NCBI GenBank assembly: GCA_943704415.1
Contig: CALSCO010000263.1
Location: forward strand, 1 to 46,033
Direction: 5' to 3'
Origin: Parvularia atlantis
Taxonomy: Eukaryota
DNA length: 46,033 nt
Within the stretch, counting starts at the first letter, position 1. Each line of letters begins with the position of its first letter. The notes beneath the pieces were generated by a model. It searched no databases, was not told the origin of the DNA, and worked only from the letters and a program-made list of their open reading frames with translations. The translations under genes were made by a program, and so were the position numbers. This document shows, in pieces, positions 2,476-35,600 of the stretch.

Positions 2476-4496
2476 TCACAGCTCGAGCAGGCTGTTCGCG
2501 CGCCGGTGGCGGATGATGTCGGCGATGGTGATCATCTTAAAGCCGTGGTGCCGAGAGAACGCGCGCAGGTAGTCGCGGCGCGCCATGGTGCCGTCGTCGA
2601 GTGCGATCTCACACAGCACGCCGCACGGGTACACCTTGGCCATCTTGCAAAGGTCTTCGCCGGCGCAACGGGGTCAGCCTCGTGCACCCCCCCCTTGTAT
2701 CACCCGGAGAGCGCGCACCGATGGTCGCCTCGGTGTGCCCCATGCGCGTGAGCGTTCCACCGTTCGCGTATCGCAGCGGGAACATGTGGCCCGGACGTGC
2801 AAAGTCCTGCGCGCGCGTCAGCACGCGTGCGCGCGCGAGTGGTGACGCGACCATGCACCTGCGGCTTGACGTTCGGGTCGGTCACGGCGCGCGCGGTGGC
2901 GGCACGGTCGGCGGCCGAGATACCCGTCGTCGTGCCTGGCCAGTCACGCTCAGTCGCACACCAGGCCGCACGCACGCGCGCACGCACCGTGCTTGTAGTC
3001 GATCGAGACCGTGAACGCCGTCTGGAACGTCTCATCGTTGGCGGTGACCATGAGCGGCAGCTGGAGCTCCTCGAGCCGACCCGGCAAAACCGACATGCAG
3101 ATCAGCCCGCTGCAGAAGCGGATCATGAACGCCATCTTCTCGGCCGTCATGAACTCAGCCGCGATGATTAGATCGCCCTCGTTCTCGCGGTCCTCATTGT
3201 CCACAACGACCACAAACTTGCCCGCGGCTGCGACTCCCGTCACACAACATGCCTGCAGCAGGCCGCGTGCGCGCACCGATGTCGGCGAGCGCGTCCTCGA
3301 CCGTGTCAAACTCGCAGCTGTCCGACCGCTCAGCCTCCTGCGGCACGTCTGCGGGCGCCTTGCTGGAGCTCTTGTGTGCGCTGCACGCCTGCTATCAGCG
3401 ACACATAGGAGAGTCCGGCGCATGAGCGCGCACGCACCCAGCCTCAGCACCGTGCGTGTGCGTCGCCGGGTTGACCGTGAACACGCGCTCGGCGAGCGCC
3501 TGCTTCGTGTACTCGAGCCGGCCGTTCACAAGGACACCGCACACGTCGCTGTCCTGCACGCGCATGAGCACGTCGCGCAGGTCTGGTGTGCGTGCGGGCC
3601 AGGTCAGCAACAGAGCAAGGAGCGCTGCGCAGACGCACCGTAGTCGTCGAGCGCGGCCCACGTGTCGTCGGCGTAGATCACGACCAGGTCGCCTGGCCTC
3701 GTCGCACTCGCGGCAGCGAGCGCGGCCTGTTCATCAAGCCGTCTGGAGTGTGCACACGCGGTCAGCCTCGGGGTGCGCACGAACGGGTGTGCACATACCC
3801 GGCCACCAGCAGCGCCCGCAGCTCGTCCCACACGCTCGGCGAGGCCTTGGCCGTGCTGCCGGTGCCAATCAGGCCTGCTGCTGTTGCTGCTGTGCCGTGC
3901 GCGTGATCAGCAACGCCCACGCAGCAGCAGCAGCGCGCACCGGCAGCCGCGCGATCGGCGCGCAAGCACACGACGTCGGCCGGGCGCTTGTTGACGGCGC
4001 GCACGACGACTGCAGGGACCACGCCCGCCACCTCGCCCTCCACCTCGGCCGCCGACAGCGCGGGCGCATCCACGTGCACCTCCGTCACGCCGGCGCGCAG
4101 GCTCGCGGCTAGCAGCGCGCGCAGTGCGACGGCCGACGCGCGGTGCTGCACGAGGCGGCGCCGTTCGTCAGCGGGCACGCACGGGACGCGCCGTGCGCCG
4201 CGCACCGCGTCGTGCTGGCCGTGGCCATTGACCACGCCCGCCGCGGCCGTCGGCGCCGACGCGCCGCCCGACGACGGCGGCACGTGCAGGTACGCGTTGC
4301 GCAGCGCCGGGAGGACGACGAGGCGCCCCTCGCCGCGCACCTCGAGCAGCGGCGCGCCCTCGTCACGACCGTCGCGGCCGTCAGCAGCAGCACGCCACAC
4401 GACGTGCCCGTCCGCGCCCACGACGACGGCGCCGCGCACGAGCCCCGCGCCCGCCGGGAAGAAGAAGACGTCGCGCAGCAGCAGCGCGGCGGCCAT
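2476..4496 (-). CDS. RIB3: 3,4-dihydroxy-2-butanone-4-phosphate synthase (RIB3/RibB) fused at its N-terminus to a degenerate amidohydrolase-like domain
   Basis: C-terminal part [30 protein letters not shown]...[24 protein letters not shown]...[12 protein letters not shown]...[15 protein letters not shown]...GVLCEI...DDGTMARRD is canonical RIB3. N-terminal part has [18 protein letters not shown] and RPGDLVVI...[12 protein letters not shown]. Removing GT-AG introns keeps one frame from ATG 4496 (alternative 4514) to TGA 2476. Confidence 0.85.
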
Positions 4497-4758: not shown

Positions 4759-5348
4759 ATGGCCCTCGCCCCGCGCCGCCTCGCGTCGCTCTTTGACGAC
4801 TTTTTCGGTGTGTCGCCGTGCGCGCGTCGTGCTCAGTTGGGGGGTGGCGTGCTGACACCCGGTGGCGTTCGACCGCGAGCACGCGCAGAGCCCCGCATGT
4901 TTTCGCTCATGCCGCGCGCCGACAACGACGTCGCGAGCGCGATGATGCAGTGGCGCCCCTCGTGCGACGTGCGCGAGACCGATAACGCGTACCTCATCCA
5001 CGCCGAGATCCCCGGCGCCCAGAAGGAGGACGTCAAGGTCGAGCTCGAGGGCCAGCGCCTCAAGATCTCGGGCTCGGTCAAGGAGGAGAAGAAGACCGAG
5101 AACGACCGCTACCACTCGCAGGAGCGCTCCTTCGGCAAGTTCATGCGCGTCTTCTCGCTGCCGCAGAACGCGCAGGTGGACCAGATCTCGGCCAAGCACG
5201 AGAACGGCGTGCTCGAGCTGACCATCCCGAAGCAGCCGATGGAGGTGCGTCTGACCGTGGTTTGCTTTGGCGGCTGACCCGCGTGCACGGCTCGCGTGCA
5301 TCGCCGCGCCCGCAGCAGACCAAGGCGCGCCAGATCAAGGTCCAGTGA
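4759..5348 (+). CDS. Small heat-shock protein HSP20; 3 exons
   Basis: MALAPRRLASLFDDFF|EPRMF...WRPSCDVRETDNAYLIHAEIPGAQKEDVKVEL...QERSFGKFMRVFSLP...AKHENGVLELTIPKQPME|TKARQIKVQ*, including the C-terminal IxV motif. Confidence 0.95.
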
Positions 5349-30350: not shown

Positions 30351-30591
30351 GTAGCTGCTGCTATCTGCTTCGCCGCCTCGCGCGTTGCCGCGCTGCATCC
30401 GCCGCGCGCTGCATCTGCCGCCTGCGCGCCGCTCAGGGTGGGCGCGCGGATTGTCGGATGGATCGGGGTGCCGCCGCGTCGTGCGCGTCCTGTGCGCGTG
30501 CGGTCAACGTCTGCCTCGCCGCCCTTCACCGAATTCGGTGTCTCAATTCCGCGCCCCCCGTCGCGCGCACGCGCAGCAGCGGCCTGCGAAG

Positions 30592-30754
30592 ATGGCGAAT
30601 CCGTTCGCTGTCCTCACGATCGAGGACGACGACGAGCCCGAGGCGCCTGTGGCAGCCCCGGCGCCCGCGGCGGCGGCCAAGGGCGGCGCGGCGGTCAAGA
30701 AGGACTCGCCCAAGCAGCCGGCGGCGGCGCAGCAGGGCTCGGGCCAGGGCCAAG

Positions 30755-30785
<31 letters not shown>

Positions 30786-32358
30786 CAGCAGCGGCCCGCG
30801 TGAGCCCCGTGGCGACCGCCAGCCGCGCGGCGACCGTCCGCCGCGTGCCGATCGGCCCCCGCGTGAGGGCGGCGGTGCGTGACGCGCGCTCTCTCCCCTC
30901 TCGGGTCACGTGCGGAGGGGGACGCAGGGTGCGGGGGCGCGGGGGCGCGGGGGCGTACACGCCTGATGAGACACATTCAACATTCTCGTACTAAGTTTCA
31001 GAGCGGGTTGTGGCGCATCTTTCCGCCCGTCCCGCAGTGCTCGAGACCTTGAATCACTCCACTCTGACCATCCGCCCGCCCCCCTCCGCCCTCTGCCCTG
31101 CACACCCCCCTCGCGCTGCTGCTGCTGCTGCTGCTGCTGCTGCATTGCCCGTCTCGGCGCATCGGCTCACTCGAGCGCACACCGCACCGCACCCGATCGC
31201 GATGCGCGCAAAAGATCGCCCACCGCGCACCGAGCCGCGCGAGCCCCGTGGCGACCGCCCGCCGCGTGGTGACCGTCCGCCGCGCTACGCGCGTGCGCAG
31301 GGCGAGCAGCCGGCCGGTGCGTTGCCGCGAGCGCACTGGCGCTGCGTCTGTGGCCTGACCGATCGCCGCAGCCGGTGGCGAGGGCGAGGGCGCTGCCGAG
31401 GTGCAGGACTACAACCCGAGCGAGGCGAGCTTCGACCGCCGCCCGTACGAGGGCTCGACCCGCGGCCGCTACGGCGGGCGCGGCCGTGGCGATGGCCGCA
31501 AGCGCGAGTTTGACCGCCGCGGCGCGCCGCACCACTCCGACGGCGCCAAGCACGAGACGCACGGCAAGGGCAACTGGGGCGCTGAGGGTGCTGCCGACGC
31601 GAGTGCGGAGCCCGCGGCGACCGAGGGTGCGTTTGGCGCTCGCTGCTGCCGCGGGCGTCTGACGCGAGGCGCACCTGGCGCAGACGGCGCTGCCGCCGCC
31701 ACCGGCACCGAGGAGGGCGCGCCGGCCGCCGACGCGACGCCCGCTGCGGCGCCCGCGGAGCGCCGCGAGGACCCTGATGACAACGTGCGCCGCCGTGACG
31801 CGGCCGCTTGCGCCGGCTGACGCGGTTGGGTGGCGCAGCTCAAGACGCTCGACGAGTGGAAGAAGCTCCAGAGCAAGCCCTCGATCGAGCTGCCCCCGGC
31901 GCGCAAGGCGAACGAGGGTGCCAACGAGGAGGAGTGGAAGGAGGCCGTCGTGCTCGACAAGACGGCCGAGGAGTTTTACTCCGGCAAGGTGCGCGGCACG
32001 CGATGCGCGCTGGTGCCAACTGCTGACACACGAGCCGCGCTCGCAGGGCGTCACCAAGGCGTCCAAGACCAAGGAGCCCAAGCCCGTCGTGCGTATCGAG
32101 GTGGAGATGAAGCGCTACCAGCCCGAGCGCTTCGACCGCGGCGGCGACCGCGGCGGCGACCGCGGCGGCGACCGCGGTGGCCGTGGTGGCGGCCGTGGCG
32201 GCGCGCCTCGCGGTGGCGGCCGGGGAGGCCGTGGCGGAGGCCGCGGCGGCTACTCGTCGGACCGCCCGCCGCGCGCGGACGCGCCCGCCAAGGGGCCCAA
32301 CGCGCCCGCCCTCAAGCTCGACGAGGCCAACTTCCCTGCGCTCGGCGCGGCGAAGTGA
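30592..32358 (+). CDS. SERBP1: SERBP1/HABP4 (Stm1-like) RGG ribosome-binding protein
   Basis: MANPFAVL, RKREFDRR, GKGNWG, KTLDEWKK, RGG box and C-terminal DEANFPALG. Confidence 0.9.
30959..31070 (+). ncRNA. Intronic box C/D snoRNA with two rRNA guides
   Basis: Lies in the only long (~340 nt, 30875-31213) intron. C box TGATGA at 30964-30969, D' CAGA at 30999-31002, D box CTGA at 31064-31067. Guide 30983-30998 is complementary to LSU GAACUUAGUACGAGAG. Guide 31051-31063 is complementary to SSU GGUGGAGUGAUUU. G-rich 30911-30956 and C-rich 31073-31115 flanks can form an external stem. Confidence 0.85.
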
Positions 32359-32655: not shown

Positions 32656-35600
32656 TCACGCCACGCTGTGCTCGATGATGCGCGCCAAGCGCGGGTGCGA
32701 CAGGGTCCCGCCGTTGCTTGCCTTATTGGCCGCCGCCGCCTGCGCCGCCGCCAGCTTCTCGGCAAACTCGCGCGCGTACTGCCGCTCGTAGTCGAACTGG
32801 CGCTGCTCGAGCCGCGTGAGCACGGGGAACACAGCGCGCAGGTTGTCGTCCTGCGCGCGGCATGTCAGCATGAGCACGAACTGTAACCAGGCTGTGCCGC
32901 ACAGTGCTCTGGTCCGAGATCGTCTTGAGCTCTGCAAACTTCTCCACGCACAGGCGCTGCAGCGCTGACAGTTCGCGGCTCAGGTCCCGGTCGTCCAGCG
33001 CCGTGTTGATGTGGTGCTGCTCAAACGTGTCGTTTGGCGCGGGCATCTGCGGACGAGACGCGGCGGCGCTCAACGGCTCGCCGTGCCAACGCGGCGCGGC
33101 GCGGCGCGGCGACGGACCGAAAACTGCGCGATGAGTTGGCGCATGGCCTCTTGCCGCTCCTCCATGAACGGCAGCATCGCCGCCATGTACGGCTCCTTGT
33201 CGATCACGGGCACGAGGTTGGCCAGGCACTGGATCACCTTGGCGACGAGCGTGAGCGAGCGCGCCGGGCGGGTTGTCAGCGGCTCTGTCGCGCGGCAGGC
33301 GTGTAAGTCTGTGCGACAGCGAGGCTGCGGGCGGCGTGCCGTTCACGAGGCCGAACAGCGCCGGGTTGAGGATCGCGGGGCAGAAGAAGCGCAGGAAGAT
33401 AAACCCGCTGGCGCGCGGCGCTCAGTTTTCGGCGGTGCGGCAAGGCGGCCACCGCGCGCGCACCTCACGGCCGTGTACTGCTCGTCGCCCGTCTTGAACT
33501 TGCGGATGACCTCCTCGCGGATGTTGGCGAAGACGCGCTTGATCTCACTGCGTCGCACATGCTGCAATCAGCCGCACGTCGCGTGCGCACGCGGCCGGCG
33601 CACGGCGGGCAGTTGTCGACCGAGTACTGGATCGCCTTGAAGCACGAATCGCAGTACTGGTACAACCTCTTCTGGTTCTTCTTTGCGTCCTCGCCCTTCT
33701 CCAGCCGCGTCGGGTCGATCTGCCAGCCGGTGAGACGTCGCTTATGCGCGCGTGTCGACGGCGCACCTCGAGGCTGTCGCGCTCGACCGCGACCGAGCGC
33801 ACAAAGCTGGCCAGCGTCTCGTGCAGGTACTCGAGCCCGACCATCTTCATATACATGTCAATTACCTTTGTGCCGAGTGTGTTGCCGCGGAAGATGATGG
33901 CGGCGCGGTCTGCGAGAGGGTGCATCAGCAGACAGGCAGACAGCAGAGCAGCGTCGGGCGCACCCGTCTTGCGGATCTCAAGCGTCGTGAGCGTGCGCAC
34001 AAAGTTGGTCACGCGGTTGTTGAGCGCAAAGATGTTGACGAGTGTCCCTGTGAGCGACGGCGCAGTGAGCAGCGGCGGCGGCAGTGCACAGAAGCGCACG
34101 CACCGGCGGCCTCATCGAGTTGCGCGATAGCTACCTTCGCGATGGCCTCGGCGACGGTGAGCTCCGGGTCGATGATGATCTACCGGGGTGCACGCGGTGT
34201 CAGGGTGTCGTGTGCGCGCGCGTGCATGCTAAAAAAAAAACGCACGTCGAGCAGCTGGCGGTACTCGCTGAACGGCATAATCTTCTCAAGCTGCGTTCGC
34301 GCGGTGTCAGCTCAAGGTCACAGTGTCGATGTGTGCGCGCACCGTCAGCGTTAGCTTGAGCCGCAGCAGGCCAAAGCCCTCGTCCACGGCCGTCGAGACG
34401 TTTCCCTCGACCGTCGTGCTGCGCGACTTACCGATGGACCCGTCACCGTGGCTGCTGTTGAGCTTACGCTTGAGCATGCTCCTGCGCGCACACGTCAGGC
34501 TCCGATGCACAGCGGAGGTGCAGCGCGCGCACCGGTTCGGCTGCAGACGCTCGTGCGCGCGCACGACGAACCACTGGTCGATCGCGCGCCCGTGCCGGAA
34601 CATGTTGAGGTCGACCTCGACGACGCCTGCACACCGTACACGCGTCAGCGGGGGGGGCCAGCACGCACGCGCGCACGCGCGCCGCACCGAGCCTGCAGTC
34701 GGTGTCGCGCTTGTTCTTGCGGTCGCTGACGTTGTTGATGAGCAGCACGAGCGACGAGGTCTCGTGTGTGATCTCGGAGCTGTGGGGCGTGTGTGAGCGC
34801 TGCCTCAGTGGATGGGCCGGCGGACGCACTCGAAGAAGAACTCGTGCGCCCAGAACGGGTTGGTCGAGGCGTGCTTGGGCAGCGTCGTGGCGCGGTTGAT
34901 GCCGTCCACGAGGATCACGGCGTACGGCGACGGCTTGGTGCTCGCGTTCAGACCGATGTTGCTCCCTGCCCGCACAGCATCAGCACAGGGTACTGACGGG
35001 CAGCCGCAGCCGCGCGCACCCTCCATCACGTGCACGCGCAGCGTCGCGATGACCTTGAACGGCTCGTCGCGGCGCACGGCTGATGCACGCCTGGCGGTGC
35101 GTTGCGGCCAAATCAGTTGCGCATCGCTGCAGCGGCACTCAGCGGGACGCACGCAGCCCGCGACTCTTGCATCGCCGCGGCGTCCTTGCTGCCCTTGCGC
35201 GGGAGCGACATGGACGTGTGACGCCTGCGGATGGGTGCGATGAGCGCGGCGGGGAAGCTCGGCGTGGTGTCGACCTGCGACGGGCGGCGGGATCGTGTCG
35301 GCACCAAGGCACCGAGGGTGGGCCAGTAGGGCACGCACGTCGTCCTCGCCCGGGTGGATCGTCCGCAGCACCGTCACCCACCGGTTGCGCTCGGCCACGG
35401 TCGGCGCGAGCAGGCGCAGCTCCTCGCCGTTGATGAAGCGCATGCAAAACTCCTCGTTGGCGCAGTTTTCCTTGTTGATGATGATCGCGTGGGTGAGGTC
35501 GCGCACGGCCAGCGGTACCGCGCCCGCGCCCTTGTCGCGCTCGTTGTACTCCTCCAGGTAGAAGCCGCGCTTGGCGTAGAGGAACGCCTTCCACTTGGAA

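Follow-up and report, generated by a model that had tools for sequence, protein, structure and literature searches.

A putative intronic box C/D snoRNA of Parvularia atlantis with a guide antisense to the sarcin-ricin loop

We analyzed a 46,033-nt stretch of Parvularia atlantis DNA (contig CALSCO010000263.1), referred to here as the window, a eukaryotic contig of high GC content whose introns are short. The putative snoRNA described below lies in the first intron of a SERBP1/Stm1-like gene, the exons of which join into one open frame.

30592..32358, plus strand: SERBP1/Stm1-like host gene with six coding exons and an open frame of 400 aa
30592-30874, 31215-31316, 31372-31626, 31684-31784, 31839-31988 and 32047-32358, plus strand: coding exons of the host gene
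30875..31214, plus strand: host intron 1, 340 nt, GTGCGT...AG; its joint is absent from the RNA contigs

The sequence-only reading of this DNA had named SERBP1/Stm1 as the host, and our searches agree with it. A PDB search with exon 5 retrieved SERBP1 chains (best E 4.9e-5), exon 3 gives a weak Pfam match to HABP4_PAI-RBP1 just under the cut-off (E 4.2e-4, 21.5 bits against 21.8), and exon 6 encodes RGG repeats; together, these features place the host in the SERBP1/Stm1 family. Exon 3 alone as a query gave no match in three other searches. RNA contigs were inspected from four of the nine listed runs. In run X2, a contig that starts at 31214, the edge of exon 2, shows introns 2-5 (55, 57, 54 and 58 nt) spliced; intron 1 is six times as long as these. 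No contig of run X2 crosses 30635-31156, a gap that spans the snoRNA and most of exon 1, and because most of exon 1 is missing too, the gap says nothing about snoRNA expression. Run X1, from which the window itself may derive and which is therefore no independent evidence, has a contig over the snoRNA (30798-31104) with a depth of 64 compared with 230-260 in the flanking contigs, and allelic variation, repeat-related breaks or bias may account for this low depth. A CTG repeat lies in intron 1 downstream of the snoRNA (31105-31145), and exon 1 contains a CAG (polyQ) run (30759-30784). A candidate 5′-UTR intron of the host gene (30438-30577, with GT after CAGG and ending in CGCAG) was not seen spliced.

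Elsewhere in the window, a PH-C2-RasGAP gene (32726-35692, minus strand) is convergent with the host gene. A fragment of DHBP synthase from the riboflavin pathway (2953-3525, minus strand, E 5e-31) is present, as are fragments of ceramidase, Sir2, glycosyltransferase 92, MFS, UPF0515 and UCH. An HSP20 frame (4966-5274, plus strand) has mostly unnamed matches, and its only named relative is gammaproteobacterial and 46% identical. Two similar, adjacent membrane-protein-like frames (42922-44256 and 44498-45583, minus strand), with similar stretches at 43317 and 44890, are apparently a tandem duplication.

Within intron 1, we assigned the following elements.

30959..31070, plus strand: box C/D snoRNA of ~112 nt, with ends placed where trimming relative to boxes C and D normally occurs
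30964..30969, plus strand: box C, TGATGA, with C instead of a purine as its 5′ neighbour
30983..30998, plus strand: D′ guide, antisense to LSU helix 95 (the sarcin-ricin loop, SRL), covering its 5′ strand, bulged-G motif and tetraloop
30999..31002, plus strand: box D′, CAGA (CTGA in the homologues L107 and L114)
31003..31035, plus strand: internal GC-rich hairpin (z -3.7, for a region picked after the fold was seen)
~31036-31044, plus strand: degenerate C′-like stretch 3′ of the hairpin, assigned as C′ by eye
31051..31063, plus strand: D guide, antisense to SSU helix 34
31064..31067, plus strand: box D, CTGA, a motif read in the sequence
30941..31084, plus strand: predicted external closing stem (30941-30951 with 31075-31084), G/C-rich and of low complexity

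Boxes C and D are 94 nt apart, and boxes D′ and C′ are both degenerate. The GC content of the snoRNA is 0.54, compared with 0.68 for the entire host intron. Folding of the whole snoRNA is unremarkable (z -0.44, and z 0.48 for the homologue L107), as expected for C/D RNAs. At the gathering score, Rfam returned no match anywhere in the window, and a relaxed search up to E 10 returned no snoRNA at this locus; neither the U14 family nor SNORD91 matched. Both guides end directly at a D-type box, which is the register required for methylation.

Pairing was computed on rDNA of other eukaryotes from public contigs, rather than on that of P. atlantis itself; three of the sequences (L086, L101 and L103) were verified with Rfam. 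The 16-nt pairing with the SRL that had been proposed stands on fungal-type LSU, where the D′ guide forms 14 Watson-Crick and two terminal G-U pairs; on other LSU types, it is reduced to 14 plus one, so that the conserved core is 14 bp and the 16-nt length varies with rRNA type. As had been claimed, SSU helix 34 is the complement of the D guide, and the pairing comprises 11 Watson-Crick pairs and flanking G-U. Duplex energies are about -21 to -22 kcal/mol for the LSU and about -20 kcal/mol for the SSU. Counting to position 5 of each guide gives the same two nucleotides that the sequence-only reading had named: a U 8 nt 5′ of the tetraloop A targeted by ricin, and a G 15 nt 3′ of the CCG cytidine in helix 34. 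These are presumably U3019 (LSU) and G1295 (SSU) in yeast numbering. To our knowledge, neither site is on the methylation lists of yeast or human.

As a chance control, every CTGA/CAGA box of the window, 571 in total over the two strands, was compared with a partial rRNA panel of 2,728 nt. The two guides ranked first and second, with perfect rRNA matches of 14 and 11 nt, and the next best box reached 10 nt. The intronic dual-guide C/D snoRNA first read at this locus is thus upheld in its boxes and guides. We ruled out an inserted rDNA fragment as the source of the guides because there are two short antisense pieces, from different subunits, each of which ends at a box. Among 59 fetched LSU pieces, a set whose rRNA types were restricted by the scan pattern, a perfect 14-nt complement of the guide was found in 27 and a mismatch in the core in 32; we take 31 of these 32 to be of a plant-like type. 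The eukaryote-type LSU motif also occurs in 56 contigs (L047-L102) of prokaryote genome records, three of which were checked with Rfam, and this is apparently contamination.

A metagenome scan with a pattern of 14 guide bases followed by a D-like box yielded 14 loci, two of which are complete C/D snoRNAs. The test for boxes C and D has a background of 0.7% per site, which gives P ~0.005 for two of 14. The other 12 matches are without box C and were treated as chance.

L107, about 1545-1470, minus strand: snoRNA with the same 15-nt guide, in an ARP3 intron
L114, about 1103-1185: snoRNA with the same 15-nt guide, in an ARP3 intron

The window sequence at 30984-30998 (15 nt) is identical in both loci, where it likewise lies between boxes C and D′ of an intronic snoRNA, and the spacing from guide to D′ is equal in all three. 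Both homologues have box C 18-19 nt upstream, a D′ box CTGA, a C′-like TGAAGA, box D and terminal stems of 7-10 bp. They differ from the window snoRNA in being ~75 nt long and AT-rich, in their canonical D′/C′ boxes, in their ARP3 host and in their lack of the SSU guide. Neither matched an Rfam snoRNA at E up to 1. The search pattern itself dictated all but one of the 15 guide bases in common, so that the independent evidence consists of the boxes, the stems, the intron position and that single base. The two snoRNAs occupy the same intron of orthologous ARP3 genes and therefore count as one lineage. The ARP3 proteins are 95% identical, 46 of 72 fourfold-degenerate sites are identical, and within the host intron the snoRNA is the sole aligned island; the preceding intron aligns on a T-run only. 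In a quick tree built from one 152-residue exon, both ARP3 sequences group with Lithocolla globosa, which NCBI places under Rotosphaerida, in a clade of 14 rows (SH-aLRT 96), and the organisms that carry them are likely nucleariids, fungus-related amoebae. Scans of viral contigs gave 18 matches to the D′ guide, none of which was rRNA or snoRNA by context, and 36 matches to the D guide, none with box C upstream. Judged from the comparison of these loci, the SRL guide is under selection beyond P. atlantis, with neither the partner guide nor the host gene in common.

ARP3 is a host unrelated to translation. The sequence-only reading had linked the snoRNA functionally to its eEF2-binding host, and the strongest form of this idea is that the two are a functional unit in which SERBP1 clamps eEF2 on dormant ribosomes while the guide tunes the loop on which eEF2 docks. 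The host is indeed SERBP1-like, the target is the SRL, and Stm1 has been seen with eEF2 on idle ribosomes (PMC8789840, in part). However, both homologues are hosted by ARP3 instead of SERBP1, translation-related hosts are established as the norm for intronic snoRNAs (see also parts of PMC3273799), and the guide would work on nucleolar pre-rRNA whereas SERBP1 works on mature ribosomes. We therefore found no support for the link and consider such a unit highly improbable; most likely, the host gene would merely supply coexpression with the translation machinery.

The preferred reading is a plainer one. By its sequence features, the RNA is a canonical methylation guide of a known kind and an uncatalogued family, conserved, with one well-placed and possibly unreported target. 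We consider it to be probably an ordinary intron-encoded dual C/D guide, predicted to methylate the U on the 5′ strand of the SRL and the G in SSU helix 34. Following established snoRNP biology, the SERBP1 intron would be spliced, debranched and trimmed to an RNA of ~112 nt, and Snu13, Nop56, Nop58 and fibrillarin would bind its C/D and C′/D′ motifs. Each guide would pair with unfolded pre-rRNA, and fibrillarin would 2′-O-methylate whichever nucleotide faces position 5. With both the bulged-G motif and the tetraloop covered by its pairing, the D′ guide would act only in the nucleolus before helix 95 folds and would then have to be released.

The same coverage of the loop raises another explanation, in which the snoRNP is real and its SSU guide methylates, while the D′ guide serves as a chaperone that keeps helix 95 open in early assembly of the large subunit. 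The pairing is long (14-16 bp) and spans the entire loop, the ARP3-hosted homologues retain the SRL guide alone, and Leishmania LM32Cs1C1 is reported to have a chaperone role alongside methylation. A precedent for SRL-proximal pairing without methylation is Tetrahymena TtnuCD32 (PMC6315972, in part), which shares with the window snoRNA its box C/D type and an extended complement that overlaps the sarcin-ricin stem at its base. According to the same excerpts, TtnuCD32 pairs over 15 of 16 nt at the stem base, and the predicted U is unmethylated. In contrast to the window snoRNA, TtnuCD32 is U14-like and independently transcribed, its noncanonical pairing runs across box D, and no methylation was found (PMC6315972, in part); its target is described there as mostly the adjacent stem, and its register therefore probably differs from that of the loop-spanning guide in the window. 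In addition, 14 bp is within the ordinary guide range, which is 10-17 bp in Neurospora (PMC2780460, in part), and the homologues have a canonical D′ box, CTGA, with the C′-like TGAAGA. The guide stops exactly at D′ in all three loci, which favors methylation over a pure chaperone. We consider the chaperone explanation unlikely.

We also considered that the SRL half is vestigial or has another target in P. atlantis, either because the D′ motif is degenerate or because the organism's own rRNA no longer matches. The D′ box is CAGA, a canonical C′ is not visible, the pairing was read on rRNA of other eukaryotes, and RNA contigs lack coverage of the snoRNA, although this gap is uninformative. Decay is difficult to reconcile with a 15-nt guide that is identical in distant loci of very different base composition, and degenerate C′/D′ boxes are common in working guides (parts of PMC2780460 and PMC8817022). 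We regard this possibility as quite improbable and retain the dual methylation guide as our working model.

The two predicted sites of this guide differ in their standing in the literature, and we discuss the SSU site first. Guides of trypanosomatids are not known to be intron-hosted. The window sequence at 31052-31067, comprising 12 nt of guide plus box D, is identical to the 3′ end of Leishmania LM36Cs-1′C2 and LD36Cs-1′C2. In the portions of the Leishmania and T. brucei material that were available, LM36Cs-1′C2, LD36Cs-1′C2 and LA36Cs-1pC2 have the same target G, the same D position and the 16-nt identity including box D, and the guide of T. brucei TB10Cs2″C1 is as in the window except for one change beside the box. 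Unlike the window snoRNA, the trypanosomatid Gm1647 guides have 5′ halves without an SRL guide. By eye, no similarity to the window is apparent beyond the guide, which is compatible with both descent and convergence.

The SSU site had been presented as one not known to be methylated in yeast or human, and its novelty is not supported. Gm at this position is positive by MS, cryo-EM and RibOxi-seq as SSU_1647 in L. donovani and L. major, 1648 in L. amazonensis and 1700 in T. brucei (PMC13487219 supplementary file 11, in part). Excerpts of supplementary file 9 give values of 0.34-0.54 for SSU Gm1647, and supplementary file 12 contains, in part, a (Gm)AG fragment, which other sites than Gm1647 can yield as well (PMC13487219). 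The corresponding site is missing from the Dictyostelium table in the excerpts of PMC8817022 and from a part of the Neurospora table text in PMC2780460; Arabidopsis G1299, equated with the site via neighbouring rows, is scored unmethylated in part of the PMC8053127 supplement. The SSU target is thus not new, since Gm has already been mapped experimentally in Leishmania and T. brucei. With the SSU guide of the window, the range of this site widens from Discoba to a further eukaryote, which points to a modification that is ancient or was acquired more than once; it is missing from the lists for Arabidopsis, Dictyostelium and Neurospora.

For the LSU site, a full-text literature search, whose reach excluded the Euglena supplement (PMC7672448) and the trypanosomatid small-rRNA lists, either of which may include the site, as well as the Babesia positions, found no report of the predicted Um. 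In Leishmania, the SRL lies on a small rRNA. The parts examined of Leishmania supplementary files 11 and 12 contain no small-rRNA rows (PMC13487219). Nothing on the LSU site appears in the available parts of PMC7758197 and PMC8789840, and the portion of the Ostreococcus supplement consulted holds no matching guide (PMC7671301). Arabidopsis C3019, the homologous base by its spacing to A3029, is unmethylated, and a review states in part that the plant SRL is not 2′-O-methylated (PMC11542601). The last LSU site of Dictyostelium corresponds to yeast 2959 (PMC8817022, in part). Domain VI is described as nearly bare in yeast and plants and is predicted to be modified in Tetrahymena (both in parts of PMC3273799). 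Modification of helix 95 is not as rare as the sequence-only reading had suggested: human H95 bears Gm4618 (PMC12288042, in part) and is termed highly modified (PMC8351944, in part), and Nm is also present in H95 of Babesia, where a figure alone shows the position (PMC13542104, in part). Nm on helix 95 itself is already known, and it is the predicted Um on the 5′ strand that is possibly unreported.

Two known guides come close to the predicted LSU site. Human Gm4618 is presumably a G on the 3′ side of the loop, unlike the U on the 5′ strand in the window. Its guide, SNORD91, is also a C/D RNA for 2′-O-methylation of helix 95 (PMC12288042, in part). Neurospora Nc CD45 (26S-Um3021) likewise guides a U in LSU domain VI, in a fungus (PMC2780460, in part). 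It differs from the window snoRNA in being intergenic and in using a D-position guide, and its target would lie ~44 nt 3′ of the window site, as calculated from an offset of -42 at the nearest common site in the part of the table available.

The mechanism proposed here is itself ordinary, and the loss of a single Nm is reported to be usually of little effect. Elongation factors dock at the sarcin-ricin loop, and effects on eEF2 binding or ribotoxin sensitivity are speculation. Among the three loci, guides have been shuffled and the host gene has changed. Tentatively, and with rather limited confidence, we propose that an uncatalogued, host-switching snoRNA family, retained among unicellular lineages near the fungal root, melts the whole SRL in pre-rRNA and places a 2′-O-methyl on the 5′ strand, 8 nt away from the A that ricin attacks. 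This would be the first guided modification of that strand and would yield a chemically distinct factor-docking loop in these protists, which may alter eEF2 binding or resistance to loop-cutting nucleases. A conserved guide that would have to open the entire loop pinpoints one nucleotide for testing and provides a natural handle for asking whether ribose methylation of the SRL 5′ strand changes factor binding or the folding of helix 95.
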